Of a stretch of 64,000 nucleotides of DNA, positions 15,847-60,316 are shown in pieces. Source of the stretch: Bdellovibrionales bacterium (GTDB taxonomy: Bacteria; Bdellovibrionota; Bdellovibrionia; Bdellovibrionales; UBA1609); NCBI GenBank assembly GCA_965199825.1, contig OZ241329.1, forward strand, positions 768,001 through 832,000, written 5' to 3'. The notes beneath the pieces are model-generated. The model saw nothing but the letters and a program-made list of their open reading frames with translations, made no database searches and had not been told where the DNA came from. A program made the translations under genes and the position numbers. Numbering within the stretch: the stretch's first letter is position 1; each line of letters begins with the position of its first letter.

Positions 15847-16675
15847 TCCGAGACAGATAAAGAACCCGAAGCACAGCTGCGTACAACAACTCAGCAGAAG
15901 CCAAATGCAAAACCGTAATCACGGGCGGCGCAAGATAAAGCACGTTCGAAATTCCCAATGCCACCTGAATCAAAACCAGAATCATGATTTGTCGCGACCG
16001 TAAAAGGAGTTCTCCGGTTGAGCGCCTTAAGTTCCAACCCAAACTTAAAACCAAGATCAAAACAAGATAGGCACTCAGGCGATGAAGCACCTGAAGTCCA
16101 ATGCTCCCTTGCAGAGTTGGAATCCATTCTCCGTGACATAAAGGAAAATCAGGGCAGACCAAAGCCGCATTGTGCGAGGCCACACTTCCGCCCAAAAGAA
16201 TTTGCACATAAACCGCTAACAAAACCAATAAAGGTAGAGGCTTGATCGCACCAAATGATTTTTGTTTAAGAGAAAAATAAATCCAAATTAAACATCCAAA
16301 AAGAGCGGTTGCGAGGCCTAAATGAAGTGTGACCACATAAGCCTGAAGTTCGAGCAAAACGGTCAACCCACCCATTGCCACCTGAAACAAAATCAACACC
16401 AACGAGACAAGAGCAAGTACTCGGTATTCGGTTTTGATCAGCCTTCCGCACAGATAAAAAACACCAAGCGCCACCACGCCCGCAATCGCTCGATGAATAA
16501 ACTCGAGATACACTAATGGATGAAAATCAGGAATAAAATCGCCAAAACACAGTGGCCAATCGGGACAAGCAAGCCCGGCCTTGAGCGCACGCACGGCTCC
16601 ACCTAAAACAATCAGTTCAAAAGTCAGAATACAAAGCCAACGATAATATTTTATGCCCATAAATAAAAAAACCAT
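15836..16675 (-). CDS. ctaA: Heme A synthase (COX15/CtaA)
   Basis: AGLACPDWPLC, EFIHR, CPDFPLC, LHR, LHL. Confidence 0.92.
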   Translation of the reverse strand: MVFLFMGIKYYRWLCILTFELIVLGGAVRALKAGLACPDWPLCFGDFIPDFHPLVYLEFIHRAIAGVVALGVFYLCGRLIKTEYRVLALVSLVLILFQVAMGGLTVLLELQAYVVTLHLGLATALFGCLIWIYFSLKQKSFGAIKPLPLLVLLAVYVQILLGGSVASHNAALVCPDFPLCHGEWIPTLQGSIGLQVLHRLSAYLVLILVLSLGWNLRRSTGELLLRSRQIMILVLIQVALGISNVLYLAPPVITVLHLASAELLYAAVLRVLYLSRTNV

Positions 16676-20330: not shown

Positions 20331-21927
20331 AAGGTCCTGCCGATACGGTGGGTTGAATTAAAAAGTTTTCGTGTGGTGGTGGCGATGATGTTTGCCATTC
20401 TAATGTTCGCCCACCCCATGGATTGTCGGAAGCTTTTTCGCCTCTCATCATTCCATGAATGATAACGCCGAGTGCGACCAAAAAGCCAACCCCAATTGTC
20501 CATGCCCCAATCGACGAAATCTTATTTAGATTTTCGTATTCAGGCAGGTAATCGTAATACCTTCGCGGCATTCCCATAGCGCCCAAAATAAATTGGGGGA
20601 AGAAGGTCACGTTAAATCCAACAAAAATTAAAACAAAACTAATTCGTGCTCCAAAATCGCTACACATACGGCCAAACATTTTTGGAAACCAATAGTAAAT
20701 CCCGCCCATAATCGCCATCAAGGTCCCACCCACCATCACATAGTGAAAGTGCGCAACCACAAAGTAGGTATCGTGAAAGTGAACATCCACCGCGATGGTC
20801 GCCAGAATAATTCCGGTCACTCCACCGATGGTGAAAAGGAAAATAAATCCAAGGGCAAACAACAATGGGGCATCAAAACGAATCGCACCCTTGTACAAGG
20901 TTGCGGTCCAGTTAAAAACTTTGATGGCGGTCGGTACACCCACAAGCATGGTCAAGAAAGAAAAGATCACGCCCGCAAGCTCGGACTGACCACTCACAAA
21001 CAAGTGATGTCCCCAAACAAAAAAGCTGACCGCTGCAATCCCGATACTCGAGAACGCAATCGCTCTATAGCCAAAAATTGTTTTATGCGAAAAGGTCGCA
21101 ATCAATTCGCTTACAATTCCCATTGCGGGGAGGATCATGATGTACACCGCAGGGTGTGAATAAAACCAAAAGAAATGCTGAAACAGAATCGGATCGCCAC
21201 CGAGGGCTGGATCAAACACTCCGATGTTTAAAGTGCGCTCAGCCACCAGAAGTAAAAGTGTGATCGCAAGGACCGGAGTGGCCAGCACCTGAATCACCGC
21301 GGTGGAGTAAAGTGCCCACACAAACAAAGGCATGCGCCAAAAAGTCATACCGGGTGCACGCAATTTGTGGACGGTCACAATGAAATTGAGACCGGTTAGA
21401 ATACTCGAAAAGCCCATTACAAACGCACCGAGCACAAGGAGTGTTGTGCCGTTATTTGTTTTGATGCTGTAGGGAGTGTAGAACGTCCATCCGGTATCAA
21501 CACCGTGATAAAAAAGCGAGAAGAAGGCAATCCCTGCGCCGACAATCAAGCAATACCAACTCATCAAGTTGACCCGCGGAAATGCCACATCCTTTGCGCC
21601 AATCATAATCGGCAACATAAAGTTTCCGATAAAGGCAGGAACCCCCGGGATGATCACCATAAACGTCATGATCGCACCATGGAAGGTGAACATCTGATTG
21701 TAAGTCTGAGCGTCGACGATAGTTGGACCGCGACTAAACAATTCCACTCTGATGAGCATCGCAAAGACCCCACCAATAAAGAAGAACGTCAGCACCGCGA
21801 TCATGTACAGAATTCCAATGCGTTTGTGATCCAGCGAGGTCAGCCAACTCCACAGCCCTTTGCCGTGGTTGATGTAGGACTCTGCGCTGTGAGCATCACT
21901 ATGAGTGTGAGCGGTGGACATGTTCAT
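20317..21927 (-). CDS. ctaD: Cytochrome c oxidase subunit I (A2 type)
   Basis: [34 protein letters not shown]. Confidence 0.97.
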
Positions 21928-29544: not shown

Positions 29545-29621
29545 GTATTCAAATATCCTAAAAGCTCAGACATGCGGTCGCCATTAGGCGATCCGAACTC
29601 GCTTTTAGGACATTCGAATAC
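29545..29621 (+). repeat. REP-like hairpin, copy A
   Basis: AAAAGCTCAGACAT...CCGAACTCGCTTTT inside a long imperfect inverted repeat; reverse orientation to copies B and C. Confidence 0.75.
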
Positions 29622-30435: not shown

Positions 30436-31110
30436 TCAAAATTTAGTCACCGAAAAACTTTGGGACATCAGTGGCATAGGCGCAGTCATTTTTGCAGCGA
30501 AGGACTGCTTTTGCTCCGGGCACGATTTTTTGAGTGGATCGTTTTTTGATAAAGCGGTTCGAGTGTTCTCCACCATTGTTTCTTGGATGGTTGCCGTACG
30601 CCTTAATCGCTGACTCAGGAGATCACGCGAGCGTTCGAAGTCTTTAAATTCTTCCAAAGTCATAGCAAACCGGATGTCCACCTGAAGTTCATCCCCAGCG
30701 TTATAAAGTCGTGCCCGCTCTTTGAGTTTTTTTGCAGGCGACGCTTTTGCCACTTCTTTCTCAAGTGCGCGCTTGGAGCCCTGTGCAAGTTTCAACCAAT
30801 GCTCGGCATTTTTAGGCGTGATCACACTGCAAATTCGATTGGCTTTAGAGATCGAAAGCTGCCCCGAAGCGATTTGTAATTTGAGCTCAGGGATCAAGGC
30901 ACATTTTTTAGCAACTTTATTAAAAATACTGATGAGCTCTTCAGTCATATTGAGCTTGTTGCAGGTAAAATCAAAAAGTGATCGACTCCCATAAACATAA
31001 TGGGTTTTTGCTCGCCAAACATTTTCGATTGAAAGCACCAATTCCGCATCTGAAATATTTTTGACCGACACAGCCTTGAGTACGCGAAAATAAATTTTTT
31101 GATGATCCAC
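30436..31110 (-). pseudogene. Truncated HNH-family paralog lacking the HNH domain (may still be expressed)
   Basis: Near-identical to 36218..37042 up to NDPLKKSCP, then divergent; no HNH motif. Confidence 0.8.
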
Positions 31111-31346
31111 AATTCGCTCCTACTTAATAAAGCGAAATCTATCAAAAAAAATATCCACTGCAAATTGATATAAATAAATATTGTAGGTTATTGATCGGGC
31201 GAAATTTCCGGTGGTGGCTTTTACTTTGTCAAAAAAATTTGAGCGGGCACGACTCTTTACGTTTAACGCTGAACTCAGCGACACTAACCTATTTTAAAAA
31301 ATCCCAATCTCAACTCGAACACGATCTCTAGACTAAGGAATTAAGA

Positions 31347-31423
31347 GGCTTAAAAGCGAGTTCGGCTTGGCACGCGATTGCGCAGGCAATCGAGTGCCAA
31401 ACGCATGTCTGAGCTTTTAAGCC
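31347..31423. repeat. REP-like hairpin, copy B
   Basis: GGCTTAAAAGCGAGTTCGG...ATGTCTGAGCTTTTAAGCC with inner GATTGC-gcag-GCAATC stem. Confidence 0.75.
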
Positions 31424-32898
31424 CCTTGATTCCCCATTGGCTGACTTAAAAACTGCGAGCCATCAAAACTAACGATTCTTTTATCACCATCAACGATAGT
31501 GGCGACATGGACGGGTCTGCTCCAAATTGCAAAAAGATTTTGTAAGGTCGCATTCATATACTCGCCCTGCATTTCGATACCTTCGTACATGTGCTGAAGC
31601 AGCAGCTCACCTCGATTGTTAAAGTTGGCATCGACCACCGAAATTATGGGTTGGCCAAAATTGGTAAGCTGAAACAAAAACTTCTTTTTGATCAGCTCAA
31701 AATCGCGGGTGTCGACTTCGTATTGGTTGGTGCGCTTATTAAATTTGTAAACAAACATTTTATTTTCGACACAGAACTCTTCGGTCAAAAATTCATCGAT
31801 AAACGTGACGTCGTTGTAGTGCTTGCGGACTTCAAAAATTTTTTTGCGGCCAAGGCCTGTTTGTTTGTCCCAGTTCTTTTTTAGAGAAATGTCGTTGCAC
31901 TCTGACCATTCTCTGCCGAATTGGCCTTTGTTCCAGCGCATCTCGATATTGCGAAAGAGTTCGATGCCCACTTTATAGGGATTGAATCCTGTGGGCGACA
32001 TCGCCATCGTGCCCGCATGACGATCGGCAAAATCAATAATTTCTGAGTCATCCACAATTCGCTCGGTCATCAATTTGGAGTGCCAGTAGGAGGCCCAACC
32101 TTCGTTCATGATTTTGGTCATTCCTTGAGGCGCAAAATAATAGGCCTCATCACGAATGATCGACATAATGTCTTGCTGCCAATTTTTAAGAGGTGCGGTG
32201 TGAATCAAAAATTTGAGAACATCACGCTCGGGAGGAGGGGCAGCAGTCATCTGGTCTTCGCGCTTTTGCATTTCGCGCAAGTATTCGGGCGGATTGATGT
32301 AACCTTCCATATAGTCGCGGTGCACTTTGAGTTTTCCAGGCGCCGACTTTTCACTGGGTGGAGGAAGCACATCTTCTTTTATTTTAATTTGTGAATAGGG
32401 AGAGTAGCGATCGATCAAATTTTCGATGCTTAAGCACTTATCAATAAAATCTTCGACCACATCCACACCCATCCGATCAATGTAGCGGCGGATGCGGGTG
32501 GAGTGATTGGCCATTGCATCCATCATTTTGCGATTGGTCTGCGAAAACCACATATTGTTTTTAAAAAAATCGCAGTGGCCAAATACATGGGCCATCACCA
32601 ATTTTTGATCGATAAATTCATTGCCCTCCATCAGATAGGCGTAACAAGGATCATTGTTGATCACGAGCTCATAGATTTTTGACAATCCATACTCATAACT
32701 TTTGGACATCCGGTCGTATTCCATTCCAAAACGCCAGTGAGGGTAGCGCACCGGAAATCCGCCATAAGAGGCGATCTGATTCATTTGCTCATAAGTGACG
32801 AGCTCAAAAATCGTGTCAAAAAAATCGAGGCCGACATCTGCGGCAATTTTGCAGATCTTTGCGCGCTCGCGTTCCAGTTCGGGAGTGAGGTTTGCCAT
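31417..32898 (-). CDS. spoVR: SpoVR family protein
   Basis: RYPHWRFG, IYELVINNDP, AHVFGH, TKIMNEGWASYWH. Confidence 0.95.
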   Translation of the reverse strand: MANLTPELERERAKICKIAADVGLDFFDTIFELVTYEQMNQIASYGGFPVRYPHWRFGMEYDRMSKSYEYGLSKIYELVINNDPCYAYLMEGNEFIDQKLVMAHVFGHCDFFKNNMWFSQTNRKMMDAMANHSTRIRRYIDRMGVDVVEDFIDKCLSIENLIDRYSPYSQIKIKEDVLPPPSEKSAPGKLKVHRDYMEGYINPPEYLREMQKREDQMTAAPPPERDVLKFLIHTAPLKNWQQDIMSIIRDEAYYFAPQGMTKIMNEGWASYWHSKLMTERIVDDSEIIDFADRHAGTMAMSPTGFNPYKVGIELFRNIEMRWNKGQFGREWSECNDISLKKNWDKQTGLGRKKIFEVRKHYNDVTFIDEFLTEEFCVENKMFVYKFNKRTNQYEVDTRDFELIKKKFLFQLTNFGQPIISVVDANFNNRGELLLQHMYEGIEMQGEYMNATLQNLFAIWSRPVHVATIVDGDKRIVSFDGSQFLSQPMGNQGA

Positions 32899-33987
32899 TT
32901 ATTTTCCCTTGCCGAGAAAATCCTTTATCGACTGCAAAATGCGATCGCGGTTTTCTATACGGCTCATCACAAGGTTTTCTTCATTGGTAAAAGATTTTTC
33001 AAGATCCTTAATAAACTGACCACTGCCGTATTTGCTCTCGACCTGGCCATAGCCAAACATATTTGTTTTTGGCAAAAAGAATTCTTTTAGCAATGCAATA
33101 CAGGCCTTGGTGTCCTCACCGCTCCAATTGTCGCCATCACTAAAATGAAATGGATAAATGTTCCACTGACTTGGAGGGTAATCGGTCTCAATAATTTGTT
33201 TACACAATTTGTAGGCCGAAGAAATCAGAGTTCCGCCCGATTCGGATGTCGAAAAAAACGTTTTCTCGTCAACCTCTTTGGCTGCGGCATCGTGAATAAT
33301 AAAACGGCTGTCGAGTCCTTTGTAGTTTCGTCTGAGCCACGTGTTGATCCAAAAACTCTCGAGGCGAACGATCTCTTTTTGCTCGTCACCCATCGACCCT
33401 GAGACATCCATCATATAAATCACGACCGCATTGGATTGCGGCTTTACCGATTTTTTTGAAGCGCGATACCGAAAATCTCTGCGGATCGGCACGATCACCG
33501 GATTGTTTGGATCATAGTTGCCGGTAGACATATAGCGCTTGAGAGCTTCTTTATAGGAGGATTTAAAATGGCGCAGCGACTCGGGCCCCACTTGCGATCG
33601 ACCGGTATAAGAATGAGTAACGCTATCAATATTTTTATTACCGCGCGACTGAATCCGCGGAAGCTCAAGCTCCTCGCCTAAAATATCGGCAAGCTCTTCA
33701 AAGCTAAGTTCGACTTCGAGCTCATGCTCACCGGGCTGATCGCCGGCTTCGCCCTTGCCCGACTCTTCAACTCCGTCGCCGGGTTGACCTTGTCCTTGGC
33801 CAACTCCACCCGATTGTTTTGGCCCATAACGAAAGCGCGGAATTTCAATCTGTGGGATCGGAATCTTGACGTACTCATTTTCGCGCTTACCGATCATTTC
33901 GCCATGGGTGACATACTTTTTGAAATTCTCTTTGATCCGTCCCCGCACAACATCGCGAAATCGACTGTGATCTTCTCGAATTCCCAT
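32899..33987 (-). CDS. yeaH: YeaH/YhbH (DUF444) vWA protein
   Basis: [24 protein letters not shown]; position between prkA and spoVR. Confidence 0.92.
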
Positions 33988-33991
33988 AAAG

Positions 33992-36079
33992 CTATTTTTT
34001 ATCTTTCACATCACCACGTGCAAAAATGCTGGCCACATAATGGAGCACATCGATTGCCGAGATCTCATCGTAACCGAATTCTTTGATCAATCGAGTTTTG
34101 ACGATGTCGATTTTTTCTTGAGTGTCTTTATCTGTAACAGAGCTCACCAAGGACGTGAGCTTAATGCTGTCTTTTTGATCTTCGAAAAGTTTGAGTTCTA
34201 AAGCCCGATGCAGTCGCTCATTTGTTTTGTAATCAAATTTTTTACCTTCGAGAGACAATGCTCCGATGTAATTCATAATCTCACGGCGAAAATCATCTTT
34301 GCGTGATTCTGGAATTTCAATTTTGTCTTCAATTGATCGCATCAATCTTTCATCCGGCTCATCGTCCTGTCCGGTAAACTGATTTCGTACGCGCTCTTTT
34401 TGTGTGTAAGCCTTGACGTTGTCGATATAGTTTCCACACAAGCGTTGAAGTGCACCTTCGTCAGCCGAAATGGCTCGCTGCACTTCGGATTTAATGATCT
34501 CCTCATACTCTTGCTTCACCACACTTAAGAGTTCGCGGTAATCGGTTTTTAATTCTTCATTCGCAATCAGAGAGTGGTGCTTTAACCCAGCCTCGAGCTC
34601 ATTCATCACCATAAAAGGATTTACCGATCCCTTATTTCTTTGTTGCGCCATCACGATTGCGTTTGAAAGTTTGTCTTGAATGTAGCGAGGAGAAATCCCT
34701 CCAAGCCCTTCGCGTTTTGCATCTTTTCTTAACTCTTTGATATTGTCTTCGGTGTAGCTCGGAAGACTTTTGCCATCATATAATTTAAGTTTTTGAAGAC
34801 GGGTGAGATTTGCTTTTTTTGGTTTTTCTAAACGAGTGAGAATGGCCCACATCGCACCCATTTCAACCGTGTGCGGTGCAATGCTCACACCGCGAAGAAC
34901 CCGGCTATTAAAATCCTTGCGATAGATTTTAACTTCGTCTCGCAATTTTGTGATGTAGGGAATATCAATTTTGACGGTGCGATCCCTTAAGGCTTCCATA
35001 AACTCATTGTCTTGAAGTTTGCGATACTCAGGCTCGTTGGTATGCCCAATAATCACTTCGTCGATATAAGTTTGAGCAAACTTTTTTGGTTTAATTCTGT
35101 GCTCTTGCGAAGCTCCCAAAAGATCATACAGAAACGCGACATCGAGTTTTAAAACTTCAACAAATTCAATCATGCCGCGATTGGCGATATTGAATTCACC
35201 ATCAAAGTTAAATGCTCTTGGATCAGAATCCGATCCATATTCGGCGATTTTGCGATAATTCATATCGCCGGTGAGTTCGGTGGAGTCTTGGTTTTTTTCA
35301 TCTTTGGGTTGAAAGGTTCCGATTCCTACCCGATCGGCTTCGCTTAACACCAATCGTTTGACTCGCACGTGGCTCAAAACTTTTGAAACATCGCCATTAT
35401 AAATATCCATCAGTTTTTTAAAAATAAATCGGCTTGGCGGACAGAGCTCTCCTTTGATCTGCACCCGAAACTCGGTTTTGTTTCCGCGATTAAGTTCTTC
35501 ACAAATTTTGGCGCGCATCTCTTCAGGAATCAGTAGCAGAGGCTCTTCGTGCATCGGACTTGGAAACACTTTGACGTTGGGTCCCAGCACATCTTCAAAG
35601 CGGCCCTCTTCATCAAACCACTCGAAAGTATAAAGGGCACCCTGATCGGTTTTTGCGTATTTCTCCACACCTTGTTTGAGCAAGCGACAGATTGTCGACT
35701 TCGCACTTCCCACAGGGCCATGAAGAAGAATGACTCGCTTTTCGGTTCCATAGCCCAAGGCCGCAGCTCTCAAAACATTGACCAATTTCATCAACGGAAT
35801 TTCTGCGCCGAACACAGCGTCGCGTCCGTCATTTTCTTCGTCATCAAAAAAGCGATAATGGGTCATTTGTTTTTTAACGTCGGTGTAATTCTCAACACCT
35901 TTTTCGATCACAAGATCATACATGCGCTGAAAGGCATTGCGCGTGACCTTTGGATTTTCACGAATCAAATTGAGATAATCATCAAATGTTCCAGACCAAC
36001 TGAGATCTTGAAACATTTTGTTATCTTGTAAGGACTTGATGAGTGCGGAATAATCCACACGACCTGAATTGCCCGCCAT
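33992..36079 (-). CDS. prkA: PrkA/YeaG serine kinase / AAA ATPase
   Basis: [33 protein letters not shown]. Confidence 0.95.
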
Positions 36080-36217
36080 GTGCTAACCTCCTCGAACTTA
36101 CACTTAAGTATGCATGAAAGGCGAAGGGGGTACCAATGAATCTACGACCCCGACTAATGACTAGGAATGCTCTGTAGTGTTCAAAGGGTTTTGCAATGAA
36201 CGGTTGAGCGGCAGCAG

Positions 36218-37042
36218 CTAGTGGCTATTCTGATGGTGGGCACGATGATGCCCCGAACAAAGAATTGTTAGGTTATCTAGTTCGTTCGTCCCGCCTTCTA
36301 ATATCGGTTTGATATGATGAATATCAATATGTCGCCGCTGCTGGCAGCGCACGCCGTTTTCATCAACATGCATGCATTGACTAGCGCATTTGTGCTGAAC
36401 TTGACGCTTGAGGATGACAGTCATTTTTTGTGAGCCAGTTTTCACAGGTGGGCACGATTTTTTTAGTGGGTCGTTTTTTGATAAAGCGGTTCGGGTGTTA
36501 TCTACCATCGTTTCTTGAATCGTTGCCGCGTGTCCTAATCGCTGACTCAAAAGATCACGCGAGCGTTCGAAGTCTTTAAATTCTTCCAAAGTCATAGCAA
36601 ACCGGATGTCCACTTGGAGTTCATCCCCCGCGTTATAAAGTCGTGCACGCTCTTTGAGTTTTTTTGCGGGTGAGGCTTTTGCCACTTCTTTTTCGAGAGC
36701 ACGCTTGGAGCCCTGTGCAAGTTTCAACCAATGTTCGGCATTTTTAGGAGTGATCACACTGCAAATTCGATTGGCTTTGGAGATCGAAAGTTGGCCCGAC
36801 GCAATTTGTGATTTGAGCTGTGGAATGACGGCACATTTTTTAGCAATTTTATTAAAAATGCTGGTGAGCTCTTCAGACATATTAAGTTTGTTGCAAGTAA
36901 AATCAAAAAGTGATCGACATCCATAAACGTAATGGGTTTTTGCTCGCCAAACATTTTCTATTGATAAGACCAATTCAACATCTGAAATATTTTTGGCCGA
37001 CACAGCTTTGAGTGCTCGAGAATAAATTTTTTGATGATCCAC
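36218..37042 (-). CDS. HNH endonuclease with helical (DUF222-like) N-terminal region
   Basis: QC..C..IHHIKP..GG.N...NL..LCSGHHRAHH; GTG start after AGGAG. Confidence 0.88.
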   Translation of the reverse strand: MDHQKIYSRALKAVSAKNISDVELVLSIENVWRAKTHYVYGCRSLFDFTCNKLNMSEELTSIFNKIAKKCAVIPQLKSQIASGQLSISKANRICSVITPKNAEHWLKLAQGSKRALEKEVAKASPAKKLKERARLYNAGDELQVDIRFAMTLEEFKDFERSRDLLSQRLGHAATIQETMVDNTRTALSKNDPLKKSCPPVKTGSQKMTVILKRQVQHKCASQCMHVDENGVRCQQRRHIDIHHIKPILEGGTNELDNLTILCSGHHRAHHQNSH

Positions 37043-37391
37043 AATTCGCTCCTATTTAATAAAGCGAAATATATCATAAAAAATATGCGCTGCAAATTGA
37101 TATAAATAAATATTGTAGGTTATTTCTCAAGCGAAATTTCCGGCGGTGATATTATCTTTATCAAAAGTTTGAGCGGGCACGATACTTGATCGCTAATTCA
37201 AACCGAAACATTTCGCACACCAGTAGACAGCGCTAGCCCTGGTTACAAATCATAGATGATAAAAACGGTGTGGTTTGTTATTCAACCGAAAAAATGATTT
37301 CGTGCATGAAGGTGAAATAAGATATTGGAAAATGTCGCTCAAGCGAGCGGGCACGATCACCGCTACTCATAGATCAGGAATGAAGATCCTG

Positions 37392-37447
37392 AAAAGCGAG
37401 TTCGGCTTGGCATAAGATTGCGAAAGCAATCGAATGTCTGAGCTTTT
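37392..37447. repeat. REP-like hairpin, copy C
   Basis: AAAAGCGAGTTCGGCTTGGCA...GATTGC-gaaa-GCAATC...ATGTCTGAGCTTTT. Confidence 0.75.
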
Positions 37448-37454
37448 AAGCATC

Positions 37455-40006: not shown

Positions 40007-40543
40007 GTGAATCAAGAGACGGTAATGACGAGCAAGGCAAACAGCAGAACTAAAATAATCAAGCGATATCAAAATCGAAAACTCTACGACACTCAGCAAT
40101 CCTGTTACGTGACTTTAGACGACATCGCAAAAATGATTCGCTCGAGCGAAGACGTGATGGTGATCGATAATAAAAGCAAAAATGATATTACTGCTGCAAC
40201 TCTCACCCAAATTATTTTTGAATCCGAAAAGAAAGCTTCGCAGTACGCTCCCTTGTTTACGCTTCGTGAAATTATCCAAAACGGAAACGGCAGCATCTCT
40301 AGCTTTTTGGCAAAACTTGGCGCATTTCCTAAAGACTATGCCGAAAAACAAACCCAAGCTTTGGGCGAGATGATGAACTCCGATCGTAACGACTCACGCA
40401 GCTCTTACGATGATGTGAAGCAAACCCTCGAAGAACGTGTCGCAACCGCAGCCAACGCGGCCACGTCGTCAGATTCAAGCCAACGCGGCTACAATGAGCT
40501 TACTCCTGAGCTTCCATCGTCAAATAAAGGTTTTAACAACTAA
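40007..40543 (+). CDS. PhaR-like PHA synthesis regulator DNA-binding protein
   Basis: IIKRYQNRKLYDT..S.YVTL, DIT..TLTQIIFE. Confidence 0.85.
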   Translation: MNQETVMTSKANSRTKIIKRYQNRKLYDTQQSCYVTLDDIAKMIRSSEDVMVIDNKSKNDITAATLTQIIFESEKKASQYAPLFTLREIIQNGNGSISSFLAKLGAFPKDYAEKQTQALGEMMNSDRNDSRSSYDDVKQTLEERVATAANAATSSDSSQRGYNELTPELPSSNKGFNN

Positions 40544-40550
40544 TCATTTA

Positions 40551-40587
40551 TCTGCGTGCAACTTTTTGTTCACGCAGAGTCCTTTTT
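40551..40587 (+). terminator. Probable intrinsic terminator
   Basis: TCTGCGTG...CACGCAGA stem followed by T-run after stop. Confidence 0.5.
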
Positions 40588-40902
40588 AATTTTTGCGGCA
40601 TTTTGATTTTGAACTGATGTTGATCGTGAGCACGACAGCTTTGTGGGCACGTAAAAATCTCGAGAGGTGTCAGTCTTTAAATGACTGGGCACGATCAGTT
40701 GAAACTATCGACTCAACAAGAGTTTAGAACACCCTTAAAGATTTCGTTAGAAGCGGGCACGATAATATCTCCGGCGATGTTATTTTATGGGTCAATTAAA
40801 AATTAGCGGGCACGATAAATTCTATCTGATTATAATACCGCGGAGATGTCATTCAAGCTTCTCTCCCACATCATGTGCACGATCAAAGGCTTCTCGAAAA
40901 AA

Positions 40903-41785
40903 GTGGGCACGACAACTTACTGCGGGCACGACAACTTACTTGCGGACACGATAACTTACTTGCGGACACGATAACTTACTTGCGGACACGATAACTTACT
41001 TGCGGACACGATAACTTACTTGCGGACACGATAACTTACTTGCGGACACGATAACTTACTTGCGGACACGATAACTTACTTGCGGACACGATAACTTACT
41101 TGCGGGCACGATAACTTACTTGCGGGCACGACAACTTACTTGCGGGCACGACAACTTACTTGCGGGCACGACAACTTACTTGCGGGCACGACAACTTACT
41201 TGCGGGCACGACAACTTACTTGCGGGCACGACAACTTACTTGCGGGCACGACAACTTACTTGCGGGCACGACAACTTACTTGCGGGCACGACAACTTACT
41301 TGCGGGCACGACAACTTACTTGCGGGCACGACAACTTACTTGCGGGCACGACAACTTACTTGCGGGCACGACAACTTACTTGCGGGCACGACAACTTACT
41401 TGCGGGCACGACAACTTACTTGCGGGCACGACAACTTACTTGCGGGCACGATCACTTACTTGCGGGCACGATCACTTACTTGCGGGCACGATCACTTACT
41501 TGCGGGCACGATCACTTACTTGCGGGCACGATCACTTACTTGCGGGCACGACAACTTACTTGCGGGCACGACAACTTACTTGCGGGCACGACAACTTACT
41601 TGCGGGCACGATCACTTACTTGCGGGCACGATCACTTACTTGCGGGCACGATCACTTACTTGCGGGCACGATCACTTACTTGCGGGCACGATCACTTACT
41701 TGCGGGCACGATCACTTACTTGCGGGCACGATCACTTACTTGCGGGCACGATCACTTACTGTGGGCACGACAACTTACTTGCGGC
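40903..41785. repeat. 20-bp tandem array, consensus TGCGGGCACGACAACTTACT
   Basis: 42 full units at 40921-41760 plus terminal variant units. Confidence 0.98.
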
Positions 41786-41857
41786 AAAACCCTGAGCTCC
41801 AGCGACCGCAGTTTTAATTGTGAAGGCGTGACGAGGAAAACTTTGACTAAATAAAAA

Positions 41858-42151
41858 TCAATCGGTGATTTCTGCCTTCAAAGCCCAATCCACAATCACA
41901 TCCGAATTTGAAACCTGATCGGTCTCGATAAGAAGATTTCGATGCTCAGCAATGGCTATCGCCGTAAGGTCTCGCACCACCACAACATGTTGAGGTGACA
42001 TGGGGAGCACAACATCAAAAGCATGATCGTTTTGCTGTACGGTTGCGGTCACCACACCGCTCTCATCAATCGACAAAGCATGAGGATCGATGCTGACCCG
42101 AATGTAATCTGCTGCAAATGCCGAAAGAGCGCAAAATAAAAGTTGGAACAT
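41858..42151 (-). CDS. Small secreted hypothetical protein
   Basis: Signal peptide ending AFA; AGGAG RBS. Confidence 0.65.
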   Translation of the reverse strand: MFQLLFCALSAFAADYIRVSIDPHALSIDESGVVTATVQQNDHAFDVVLPMSPQHVVVVRDLTAIAIAEHRNLLIETDQVSNSDVIVDWALKAEITD

Positions 42152-42181: not shown

Positions 42182-43453
42182 CTAACGGTAGCTGCGCCAA
42201 AGGAGAAAAGATTTTTGTCTTGATTTTACAACGATCGAAGCAGGAGCTTTGGATTCACTGGTGGGTTGGTTTTCTTCAGAGAGCCCTTGCACAGATACGG
42301 TATGCACGCCCGCGGGCACGAGAATGCGAGCGATCTGAAAGCTTTCGGGCAAAGTGGACCACTGCCTTAAATCGGCCTGATCAGCTAGGTTGAGCCCCAT
42401 CAGTGTAAGTTGACCTAATAGAGGATTTTTTTGTGCAATCTGATCGGCAATCACCACTTTTGTGGCAAGGCCCGCCACTCGCTTCGCAATCAAACCGGCG
42501 TATTGATCATTCAAGGTTTTGATCGAAACATCCTCAACCGAAAAGACATTTTGGGACAAACTTGAGCCTGCCCCTTCGACAATCAGTCGAGCGCCCGTCG
42601 TTTGTGAGCGCACCGGATACAATCTCGGGATTTGGGCAAACTGCGGACTTGGATTTTTGCGCGGGCCCCAGCCTTGCTCATAAATCAAAACGATTTCGCC
42701 ATAATTTTTGTCGCGCCAATGAGGATTTATTTTTTCGCGCGGAAATTGGGCGCGCCATTTTTGAAGTTCTTCGGGCCTTTGGGCAGCCTCAGCTGCGCGA
42801 ATTAAATCGTTATGCAAAAAAGGCATGTTCGGCTGAACTTTAAAAGCATTTACATAATCGATGTAGGCATTGTCGTAATTAAAATCATTTTCCCAAATCA
42901 GAGCCGACAGATAAAATGCAAATGAATTTTGCTCGTAAGGACGCTTGGCTTCGTATCTATATTTATAAAGCTTTTCGTTGAGTCGGCGGGTTTCGACAAG
43001 GGCATTTTCGGAATCGTGGAGCATTAAAAAATTGACCGCAAGCATGGCGTTGATCATCACTTTTTCGTAATCATCCCCTTTGTATTGAATCATACCTTCG
43101 TTCAACACAAGAGATCCGAATTGTCGTGAGATCGAATGGTAATCGACAATGTCTGCGATTTTTTCGGCTTTTAAAAATGCGGCATTACTTTCTTTGTATT
43201 GACCTGCATTCTGCAAAACGGTGCCGTAATCAAAAAGGTAAACCAACTGGTCGTCATTTTCGGCTTCGGCCAAGAGCTTTAAAATATTTGCGGCTTTTTG
43301 CAGTTCGCCGGTGCGAAGAAAAGTGCGCGAGGCCTCAACCTTTGTTTGGTATGAGGCGCAAGCGACTAGGAGAAAGGGCAATAAACAAAATCTATATGCC
43401 AAGGTGTTTCTTTTTAAAGATTTTGCGAATCTGTTTATAATCGGTCCAAACAA
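42182..43453 (-). CDS. COG3014-like TPR lipoprotein (true start probably downstream)
   Basis: LVAC lipobox, YKGDDYE, ADLRQWSTLP; adjacent to lpoB. Confidence 0.75.
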   Translation of the reverse strand: MFGPIINRFAKSLKRNTLAYRFCLLPFLLVACASYQTKVEASRTFLRTGELQKAANILKLLAEAENDDQLVYLFDYGTVLQNAGQYKESNAAFLKAEKIADIVDYHSISRQFGSLVLNEGMIQYKGDDYEKVMINAMLAVNFLMLHDSENALVETRRLNEKLYKYRYEAKRPYEQNSFAFYLSALIWENDFNYDNAYIDYVNAFKVQPNMPFLHNDLIRAAEAAQRPEELQKWRAQFPREKINPHWRDKNYGEIVLIYEQGWGPRKNPSPQFAQIPRLYPVRSQTTGARLIVEGAGSSLSQNVFSVEDVSIKTLNDQYAGLIAKRVAGLATKVVIADQIAQKNPLLGQLTLMGLNLADQADLRQWSTLPESFQIARILVPAGVHTVSVQGLSEENQPTSESKAPASIVVKSRQKSFLLWRSYR

Positions 43454-58431: not shown

Positions 58432-58749
58432 ACTTTCGTTATCGGTTGAGGCGGATCAAAATGTTACAGGACCTTCAGACATATTTTCTTACGGCATAAC
58501 AATTGATCACTAGCTGTTGGGGTTGGGATTTGCTAAAGTGGAATCTGTTCTTGTGGACTGAAGACAACGTAAATCCTATAAAGAATATTTATGGGGCCTG
58601 TCCCTGGGGATGGTGTGCATGCTCAACTTCGCATTGAGAAGCCTAAAGTTCCTATTATGGGCACCCACTTTAAAAAACATGGGTTTTGCGGATCGATCAG
58701 TTCCACAAGAATTTTTTTTTGCCCTTGGGTGGTTTTCGTTTGTTGGGTT

Positions 58750-59280
58750 TCGTGCCCGCTTTTTTTTGGGCGGTTGAGTTTGTCGTGCCCACATCTTTAT
58801 TTGATTGGCCGAAAAAATCTTTGTTTTTAAAAAGTTTGGTGTTTGTGGAACCATTTCCTTTTTTTGCCTGGCGTGGATTTGAAGCTAAAAATTTTGTCGT
58901 GCCCCCTTTGTGTTTCGGTTGGGCCGAAGTTTTTCGTGACCGTCTTTAGATTCATTAGAGCGAATTTTTTTGTTGTGCCCATTCCTTTAAATCAAATGGA
59001 ATCTTTGTTTTTAGAAGTTTGGTATTTTGTAGGATCATTTAATTGTCATGTTCGGATTTTGTTGGTGGCCGAAGTCTGTCGTGCCCGCCTTGAGATTGTT
59101 TTTTTGTCGTGCCCGCTTCTTAAAATCATAAGGAATTTTTTGTTCTTAGAAGTTTGGTGATTTATAGGAGACTTTACTTTTCTTACCCAGCGCAGATTTA
59201 AACCTAAAGAATTTTGTCGTGCCCATCTTTAGATTCATGAGACCGAATTTTTTGTCGTGCCCGCACAAATTTTCTTGACG
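58750..59280 (+). repeat. Degenerate cluster of TCGTGCCC motifs upstream of the HNH gene
   Basis: Motif at 58750, 58783, 58897, 59079, 59107, 59217, 59255; variants near 58934 and 58973. Confidence 0.88.
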
Positions 59281-59473
59281 GGATTTTGTTATTGCTTAAA
59301 TGGCCCTGGCTTCTATTTTCAAGCCAAATACCCTTTTTCTGCTCCAAATCATCTCGCAGACATCACCAAGCTCAACAAAGACGCCAACAAATGAACCTGT
59401 GATTCACATCCGACAAGCTGTAAAAATGAAAGATTAGAAACCCGTGGTAATCTCCTCTAAATAGGAGATATTT

Positions 59474-60316
59474 ATGGATCATTCAAAAATTCATCTCAAT
59501 GCGTTGACCGCTGCTGATGCTCATCGCAAAACCGAAATGGAATTGCTCAATGCTTTAGAGCTTGTTTGGAAAAACAAAACCTTTTCGCAATATGGTTGCC
59601 GATCGTTGTTTGAATATTCAACCAAACACCTCAAATTATCCGAAGAGATGGCAAGTATTGTAAACAAAATTGCAAAAAAATTTACTGAACTTCCTGAACT
59701 TAAAGCAGGCATGGAGTCTGGTGAACTTTCACTCTCAAAAGCGAATCGAATCACTGCGGTTGTCACAAAAGAAAATGTGGATCACTGGATGAATTTGGCC
59801 AAGGGCACCAAACGCAATCTCGAAAAACAAATTTCCATGGTCCAACCCGAGAAAGCAATTCCGGAGCGGGCACGACATCAAAAAGCGGGCGACACTTTAC
59901 GAGTCGCGATTTCTTATTCGATGACTCAAGAGGAATTTGCAATGTTTGAACGGACACAAGATCTTTTGAGCCAAAAATTAAAGCGACCGGCCTCGATCGG
60001 TGATGTTCATCTTGCAGCTCTTAAAGAGCTCCAGCAAAAGCTCGACCCGTTAGAAAAACCGATTCGCCAAAAATCAGCGGGCACGACAAAATTGACCATC
60101 GCACTAAAGCGAAAAATCCATCACAACCTGAAAAGTCAGTGCAGTCATATTGATCAATCCGGCGAGCGTTGCCCCGCGCGACGCCACCTTGATGTTCATC
60201 ACATCATTCCTAAATCGCAAGGCGGATCAGATAACGAAGAAAACCTGACCCTTTTATGTTCAGGACATCATCGTGCTCACCATCGAAAGGCTAGGAACTC
60301 CCAAAAAGCGTTTTGA
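59474..60316 (+). CDS. HNH endonuclease, divergent paralog of 36218..37042
   Basis: MDH.KI, YGCRSLF, LS.SKANRI, LDVHHIIP..GG.D...NL.LLCSGHHRAHH. Confidence 0.9.
   Translation: MDHSKIHLNALTAADAHRKTEMELLNALELVWKNKTFSQYGCRSLFEYSTKHLKLSEEMASIVNKIAKKFTELPELKAGMESGELSLSKANRITAVVTKENVDHWMNLAKGTKRNLEKQISMVQPEKAIPERARHQKAGDTLRVAISYSMTQEEFAMFERTQDLLSQKLKRPASIGDVHLAALKELQQKLDPLEKPIRQKSAGTTKLTIALKRKIHHNLKSQCSHIDQSGERCPARRHLDVHHIIPKSQGGSDNEENLTLLCSGHHRAHHRKARNSQKAF

Follow-up and report, generated by a model that had tools for sequence, protein, structure and literature searches.

The word TCGTGCCC(RC) is the signature word of a multicopy family of HNH genes, three members of which (copies 1, 2 and 3) lie in the 64-kb stretch of DNA analysed here (the window). 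Sequence comparison and structural modelling lead us to propose, with a probability of roughly 55%, that this word is the cognate site of the family's own protein and that its gene-proximal copy is an operator just upstream of a -35 element. The sequence-only reading of this DNA had treated the word and the TTGAC that follows it as one bipartite site. The four sites are real, but they join two separate features, and word and block are better described as a real, selected feature in which a lineage-specific self-site stands next to a family-wide -35-like box.

The word and its bipartite sites

A pattern search backed by shuffles recovered all four of the sites that had been claimed. The copy 1 site (31227..31252, minus strand) consists of the motif, a 10-nt spacer and TTGACA, the last starting 122 nt 5' of the start codon. 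At copy 2 (37159..37182, minus strand) the spacer is 8 nt and the box TTGATA, with a second upstream motif copy at 37347-37356. The copy 3 site (59255..59280, plus strand) again has a 10-nt spacer, followed by TTGACG starting 199 nt 5' of the start codon, and the site at the array locus (40790..40815, minus strand) has a 10-nt spacer and TTGACC and is not followed by a gene. The pattern TCGTGCCCGC-N(6-12)-TTGA has 4 matches in the window, with gaps of 10, 8, 10 and 10, a number reached by none of 100 shuffles (mean 0.00). TTGAC stands at a gap of 10 after 3 of the 27 non-array TCGTGCCC sites, and three TTGAC at any one gap were seen in none of 20,000 flank shuffles. By alignment, these four sites amount to about two independent observations, not four. 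Copies 1 and 2 are 89% identical across 735 bp beginning at the motif, and homology 5' of it takes the form of a shared hairpin (77% over 87 bp). Copy 3 is, judged in the same way, an independent instance of the block: 24 of the 26 bases are identical to those of copy 1, and between the middle parts of the two leaders there is no relationship (a score as good came from 492 of 500 shuffles). That the 26-bp block is kept beside an unrelated leader middle points to selection on the block.

The word is far commoner in the window than its bipartite form, with 68 matches to the 10-mer at up to one mismatch against 2.9 expected. Of the non-array 8-mer sites, 22 of 27 fall within the four loci, some of them inside genes, as expected of a site that the family's protein reads for itself; 5 copies lie outside the four loci against 1.3 expected. 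The bases after TCGTGCCC are non-random, being RC in most of 22 copies. Exact 10-mers also occur in unrelated genes near the loci, at 32007-32016 (plus strand) and 42312-42321 (minus strand), 2 against 0.09 expected. A full palindrome is absent from the window, where the nearest inverted half-sites are 191 bp apart, and this would argue against hairpin recognition in this clade.

Upstream copies are clustered. A degenerate repeat region 5' of copy 3 (58750..59264, plus strand) holds nine same-strand motif copies, seven of them exact 8-mers; a 6S RNA gene (58544-58716, plus strand; Rfam RF00013, 61.1 bits) ends 34 bp before the first motif of this cluster. At the array locus a tandem array of 44 20-bp units, each with the motif (40905..41784, minus strand), is trailed by seven same-strand copies that are exact or at one mismatch to the 8-mer (40626..40912, minus strand), among them the bipartite site. 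Variant units of the array are grouped in blocks, and unique spacers are absent. The bipartite site sits in an orphan 53-bp left end (40767..40819, minus strand), which by nhmmer and alignment is a homolog of the beginning of the leader in copies 1 and 2; it is the best non-gene nhmmer match (model positions 5-57, E 0.03). Its 40-nt global alignment score was reached by none of 2000 shuffles, and in a looser local alignment test 41 of 500 shuffles reached the score. A tblastn search from 40540 to 42000 found no gene remnant behind the site. A CRISPR-like array was ruled out here, as the units are head-to-tail 20-mers with 98% matches and no unique spacers, and the ORFs at 41120-41854 are just open frames of the repeat.

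The sequence-only reading placed the word upstream of the genes, which holds, and called it the gene-proximal upstream motif at each nuclease gene. It takes that position at all three genes, but copy 1 lacks the HNH and is not a nuclease; also missed were the copies of the word inside the genes and its match to one arm of a family-wide palindrome. The copy 1 gene (30436..31110, minus strand; 224 aa) encodes HTH-like and RHH-like parts without an HNH, and could be a binding-only regulator. The copy 2 gene (36218..37042, minus strand; 274 aa) has both parts and an HNH (Pfam HNH, E 4.5e-6). In the 280-aa protein of copy 3 (59474..60316, plus strand), residues ~1-128 are ParB/KorB-like and helical, 141-190 RHH-like, and 209-278 form a zinc-bearing HNH. 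Copies 1 and 2 differ by 40 synonymous and 15 non-synonymous codon differences over 197 codons, the copy 1 gene departing from copy 2 shortly past the linker motif, and the proteins of copies 1 and 3 are 43% identical. The source genome holds at least 19 copies of the family (17 proteins on the presumed source contig, and copies 1 and 2). Two window segments, 21520-21624 and 15926-15997 (plus strand), show a weak tblastn likeness (E 0.01-0.1) to the zinc/HNH part of some paralogs, on the opposite strand to other ORFs, which is probably chance.

Within the genes, a motif copy lies antisense to copy 1 at codons for ERAR (30709..30718, plus strand), with equivalents at 36641-36650 in copy 2 (one mismatch) and 59866-59875 in copy 3. 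A second is found in the linker before the HNH of copy 3 at AGTT codons (60077..60086, minus strand), and in copies 1 and 2 in the opposite orientation at SCP codons (30516-30525 and 36448-36457), so that copies 1 and 2 carry the linker motif in sense and copy 3 carries it in antisense. A third occupies the HRAH codons that end the HNH of copy 2 (36236..36245, minus strand), with an equivalent at one mismatch in copy 3 (60271-60280). At all eight in-gene positions of the three genes where the peptide is compatible with the motif, the codons used are those that give it (8/8); codon usage would yield such codons with a chance of 0.006-0.085 per position, the positions not being independent. The linkers of P0001-P0019 read SC or GT[TI] in 19 of 19 cases, corresponding to the two motif orientations (peptide evidence only). 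From these codon choices, selection on the in-gene motif appears to act on DNA rather than on peptide.

The TTGAC box and the extent of the unit

From the comparison of leaders, TTGACR is a separate, family-wide -35-like box. It occurs within 450 bp upstream in 26 of the 28 relatives' loci with leaders (11 of 12 genomes); in control windows it is found in 108 of 814, and among the 52 other ORFs in the window it precedes 7. The six relatives that carry their own motif upstream have gaps to the next TTGAC of 209, 123, 230, 194, 60 and 570 bp. This range of 60-570 bp makes the 10-bp spacing specific to the window lineage, and the idea of a fixed motif-TTGAC spacing throughout the family is abandoned.

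An earlier remark that no convincing -10 boxes are present was borne out, since none of the four TTGAC/TTGAT sites has a -35/-10 pair in the promoter scans. No -10 hexamer matching at 4 or more of 6 positions follows the four window boxes at 16-18 bp, the best candidate after TTGAC/TTGAT being GAAATT (3/6) at 18 bp in copies 1 and 2. A candidate extended -10 (TGnTAnnnT) lies closer to the gene, at 37068..37076 (minus strand) for copy 2, 31136-31144 (minus strand) for copy 1 and 59445-59453 (plus strand) for copy 3; it is present in 3/3 genes, 29-34 nt before the start, with a background of 0.03 per 60 nt, and a promoter scan picks out the copy 2 instance as well. The poor -10 candidates after the boxes and the nearer extended -10 together suggest that the -35 in the window may be vestigial. 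The idea of an operator beside a -35 gains indirect support from TTGACR in the 26 leaders and from the modelled ParB/KorB-like domain. Among the 26 relatives' loci carrying TTGACR, which made up the -10 survey, xAxxxT follows at 15 bp in 15 (within L002, L004-L018, L028, L043 and L045), nine of which come from one genome. The usual sigma-70 spacing between -35 and -10 is 16-18, and 15 bp is short.

JBFWYS, with 14 family loci, shows where the repeated unit begins. Conservation of its leaders starts just 5' of TTGACR, most paralog leader alignments begin 7-50 bp upstream of TTGACR, and paralog homology runs mostly from the promoter to about the stop codon, with ragged edges. The alternative in the sequence-only reading, that the site is an element terminus, is upheld in part, in that the identity of copies 1 and 2 and the JBFWYS alignments start at or near this left edge, but inverted ends or target duplications are not evident. 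JBFWYS leaders (e.g. L006:2560-2650) also contain a conserved inverted repeat with arms about 70 bp apart, the first of them overlapping the -10-like hexamer; no upstream palindrome copy is present in JBFWYS.

The surroundings of the window genes hold other repeats. Neighbouring genes are prkA-yeaH-spoVR, a TPR gene, xseA, the 6S RNA and unannotated ORFs. A hairpin repeat with fixed ends and a variable middle lies just after three stop codons, at 31352-31420 (minus strand), 37392-37450 (minus strand) and 29559-29606 (plus strand); copy-specific flanks lengthen its stem (fold z -7.9, -0.9 and -6.1), and it is REP/REPIN-like. One such hairpin lies just upstream of each of copies 1 and 2, and the prkA-yeaH(DUF444)-spoVR operon is bracketed by direct repeats (30436-37450) made up of copy 2 and copy 1, each together with its hairpin and leader. 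A structured leader RNA or omega-RNA was considered but gained no support: Rfam finds only the 6S RNA in the window, and the leader folds do not surpass those of shuffles (z -0.2, -1.8 and -0.2).

Protein architecture and the palindromes of relatives

The N-terminal domain (model pLDDT 87, pTM 0.72) is predicted, with moderate confidence, to be a ParB/KorB-like helix-turn-helix. Its top structural match among 48,161 chains is the DNA-binding domain of a ParB-parS structure (Z 7.0, rmsd 3.5, 96 residues aligned), followed by KorB at ranks 2 and 3 (Z 6.9 and 6.5) and Spo0J at rank 5 (Z 6.0). The first 7 rows of a Foldseek search are all ParB, none at E < 0.001, and Pfam HTH_ParB gives weak, below-cut-off matches in 19 of 135 family members. 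Against a protein reading its own site, all of the fold matches have Z < 8, values common for helical domains. The all-helical first 128 residues align to the DNA-binding domain; no Pfam match to a ParB-CTPase domain was found in the window proteins or relatives, and no parA gene adjoins the window genes. Residues 141-190 are predicted as strand-helix-helix, with weak matches to the N-domains of TraM (Z 4.7) and MazE6 (Z 4.6), and a paralog matches Pfam ParG (E 5.7e-4). A homodimer model of residues 126-200 scored 0.53 against 0.00 for the best control, with runs agreeing in at least 95% of contacts and pLDDT of at least 71. Of 30 solved pairs 20 attain the pass mark, as does 1 of 23 single chains, and the pass of residues 126-200 may reflect resemblance to solved RHH dimers. 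The HNH is C-terminal in copies 2 and 3 and missing in copy 1, and none of its catalytic or zinc residues varies across the 31 sequences compared. A PDB sequence search gave biologically meaningful matches for the HNH only. A role as a defence system was rejected, PADLOC matches being confined to the HNH stretch.

The family comprises 1,670 representatives at E up to 1e-30, the named relatives belonging to Bdellovibrionota and Myxococcota; the window itself is probably from Bdellovibrionota. Our set of relatives covers 59 loci in 17 genomes (GTDB), the best being 43% identical over most of the protein. Most of these genomes carry an 18-bp palindrome, placed in the linker before the HNH in Bdellovibrionota and in the tail after it in Myxococcota. 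The best 18-bp linker or tail palindrome pairs at 8-9 of 9 positions in 18 of 57 loci against 77 of 1410 control windows, a count for which the search window was chosen after viewing the data, paralogs are not independent and 2 of the 59 loci, which lack sequence, are left out. Its core varies by genome and even by paralog group (CCC-GGG, CTT-AAG, CAC-GTG, CAG-CTG), the two commonest being CAC-GTG and CCC-GGG; in consensus parS and NBS, palindromes of 16 bp, the cores are CAC-GTG and CCC-GGG (PMC7383237). The left arm of the L004 palindrome agrees with the window word over its inner six bases, and two half-sites of this kind stand in the linker of L001, the nearest relative.

In-gene and upstream copies covary. 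In 6 of 27 loci, from 6 of 12 genomes, the 900 bp upstream hold the gene's own palindrome variant again, with 14-16 of 16 bases matching, a count that omits 4 of the 31 near-full-length loci (L022, with the palindrome unassigned, and L027, L032 and L055, with leaders below 300 bp). In the control, 13 or more bases were reached in 14 of 1511 windows, and other genomes' motifs score lower at those sites. The upstream palindrome copy is amplified in tandem at L002, L033 and L049, as the word is in the window, and distal flanks of relatives hold 0-1 match per motif. Three observations weigh against a self-site: the own upstream variant is missing in 21 of the 27 leaders, including 10 of 10 from JBFWYS; the putative recognition helix of the window proteins is acidic (SEEMASIVNK); and JADZEO pairs near-identical helices with differing palindrome cores. 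A recognition-helix code was tried and dropped, there being only a weak association confounded by phylogeny. Exact matches to the 10-mer in relatives were likewise set aside, as the 8 found (7 of 59 loci, three at one homologous position) are about the number estimated by chance.

Elsewhere among the relatives, JALHOQ gene linkers contain in-frame 9-bp tandem repeats without a palindrome, several at contig ends (L019:1-119, L026:52-119, L037:1-107, L058:1-119), and in some Myxococcota-type members (L040:9860-11356, also P0033 and P0036) the tail with the palindrome is followed by a terminal RuvA C-terminal-like domain.

Proposed mechanism, alternatives and known systems

In the mechanism that we propose, the protein would dimerise via its ribbon-helix-helix-like module, and its ParB/KorB-like helix-turn-helix domain would read double-stranded DNA. 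Most relatives would retain an 18-bp parS/NBS-like palindrome, and the window clade one arm of it in either orientation. TTGAC would be a separate -35-like element close to where the repeated promoter-to-stop unit has its left edge. From the last upstream site, 8-10 bp before TTGAC, bound protein would control its own promoter, most probably as a repressor that keeps a risky nuclease in check. By arithmetic, the operator would occupy about -55 to -46 if TTGAC is the -35. Extra sites in coding linkers and upstream clusters could provide added binding capacity or loops, and the array locus would be an orphan left end whose site was amplified. A KorB operator 4 bp upstream of a -35 gives 4-5-fold repression even without clamp closure (PMC11790492), which fits a family protein without a CTPase domain.

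A second explanation, which we think possible but unlikely, is that the site marks where a mobile element ends or is nicked: once the protein is bound there, the HNH nicks nearby and repair copies the promoter-to-stop unit. It would also cover the orphan ends and tandem expansions, and is compatible with a self-site, to which it may be an added function. The at least 19 gene copies, a copy 1/copy 2 alignment that spans leader motif to linker motif, the orphan left end at the array locus, paralog homology typically from promoter to stop and the invariance of the HNH residues in 31/31 sequences all fit such copying, and the half-sites could derive from palindromes broken at the centre. Tandem arrays are roughly tenfold denser near genes (48 in 132 kb versus 13 in 373 kb); however, the genome's palindrome is present in only 4 of the 48 near arrays, and 36 of the 48 come from two genomes. 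No terminal inverted repeats or target duplications are evident in repeat scans at copies 1 and 3, the unit has ragged edges, and homology of copies 1 and 2 extends, at a weaker level, 5' of the motif and a few codons beyond the linker motif. The non-random bases after TCGTGCCC are unlike junction scars, and phage and plasmid collections gave no match.

That a host regulator (e.g. an SOS-type repressor) binds the site and controls all copies is improbable. There is precedent in LexA peaks at six 13E12-family genes of M. tuberculosis (PMC3381160), and a site next to a -35-like box and five 8-mer copies outside the loci against 1.3 expected would suit it, but the word also lies in coding linkers and 44-fold arrays, the motif differs between paralog groups within JADZEO, JALHOQ and DATAHZ, and its near absence from distal flanks (0-1 per motif) would be unlike a host regulon. 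We give equally little credence to a neutral repeat word spread by slippage and gene conversion among paralogs with its spacing merely inherited, since, although three of the four sites are homologous and gene flanks are repeat hotspots regardless of word, copies 1 and 3, whose proteins are 43% identical, have kept the 26-bp block where other leader parts are unalignable, and palindrome symmetry is preserved by two-sided changes across and within genomes.

Turning to known systems, the family resembles OMEGA IscB in having a similar HNH (NCBIfam residues 211-273; structure Z 7.0), many copies and a 120-340-nt leader, but it scores 32 against a cut-off of 175. Identity with IscB was rejected, as 280 aa leave no room for RuvC and Rfam and folding reveal no omega-RNA. 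There is a likeness to DUF222/13E12 (REP13E12, PF02720) of Actinobacteria, also multicopy with a helical N-terminus and a C-terminal HNH. PF02720 scores above cut-off in 3 of 7 Myxococcota relatives (profile ~2-118) and weakly in 5 of 135 aligned relatives, with no match in the three window proteins, and among Atlas clusters that have a family, the nearest one shows DUF222 in 12% of its members. On these profile matches the window family is a distant relative of DUF222/13E12, not a filed member. The window proteins are shorter, and the consulted text on DUF222/13E12 gives no cognate DNA site or ParB-like fold (PMC13157036, PMC10589994). M. tuberculosis has 19 copies of 13E12, which act as recombination substrates (PMC13157036).

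DUF222/13E12-type HNH genes are abundant and multicopy, and their biochemical function is not known. Our analysis proposes for them a DNA-binding fold, a dimer module and a per-genome target readable from the gene itself, which makes binding, cutting and mobility directly testable; if true, the self-site system would explain the position of these genes in repeat hotspots and next to assembly breaks (of 59 loci, 34 terminate no more than 600 bp from the match). A search of titles and abstract openings, most subscription journals being outside its scope, found no published description of such site-gene pairing. A broader and doubtful possibility is that these are selfish protein-guided nuclease elements, from Bdellovibrionota and Myxococcota to DUF222/13E12, in which a ParB-derived HTH would read a self-written parS-like site and the HNH would nick beside it, copying the unit and yielding minisatellite arrays and orphan ends. 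Were this so, site specificity would drift by genome as in ParB/Noc, and sequence data would give access to thousands of nuclease-site pairs as a natural library.

The proposed self-site has its nearest parallels in two further systems. With ParB-parS, Noc-NBS and KorB-OB the family shares a predicted DNA-binding fold, a modelled dimer module, 16-18-bp palindromes with CAC-GTG or CCC-GGG cores and, as in proximal KorB repression, a putative operator just 5' of a -35; it differs in having no CTPase domain or ParA neighbour, an appended HNH, many copies and, in the window, half-sites only, whereas the ParB-HNH fusions described in PMC12704722 have a CTPase fold instead. With RAYT-REP/REPIN, in which each enzyme lineage is paired with its own short repeat around the gene (PMC3337134), it shares lineage-specific gene-repeat pairing, the own variant upstream in 6 of 27 loci being unmatched by other genomes' motifs. 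Unlike RAYTs, the family has an HNH and not an HUH-tyrosine, is multicopy and not single, and carries its motif in coding sequence; the motif is not dispersed in relatives' flanks, and the window has no hairpin repeat of the word. The family's proposed recognition is like that of ParB/KorB and its enzyme-repeat pairing like that of RAYT-REP, and it is a member of neither.
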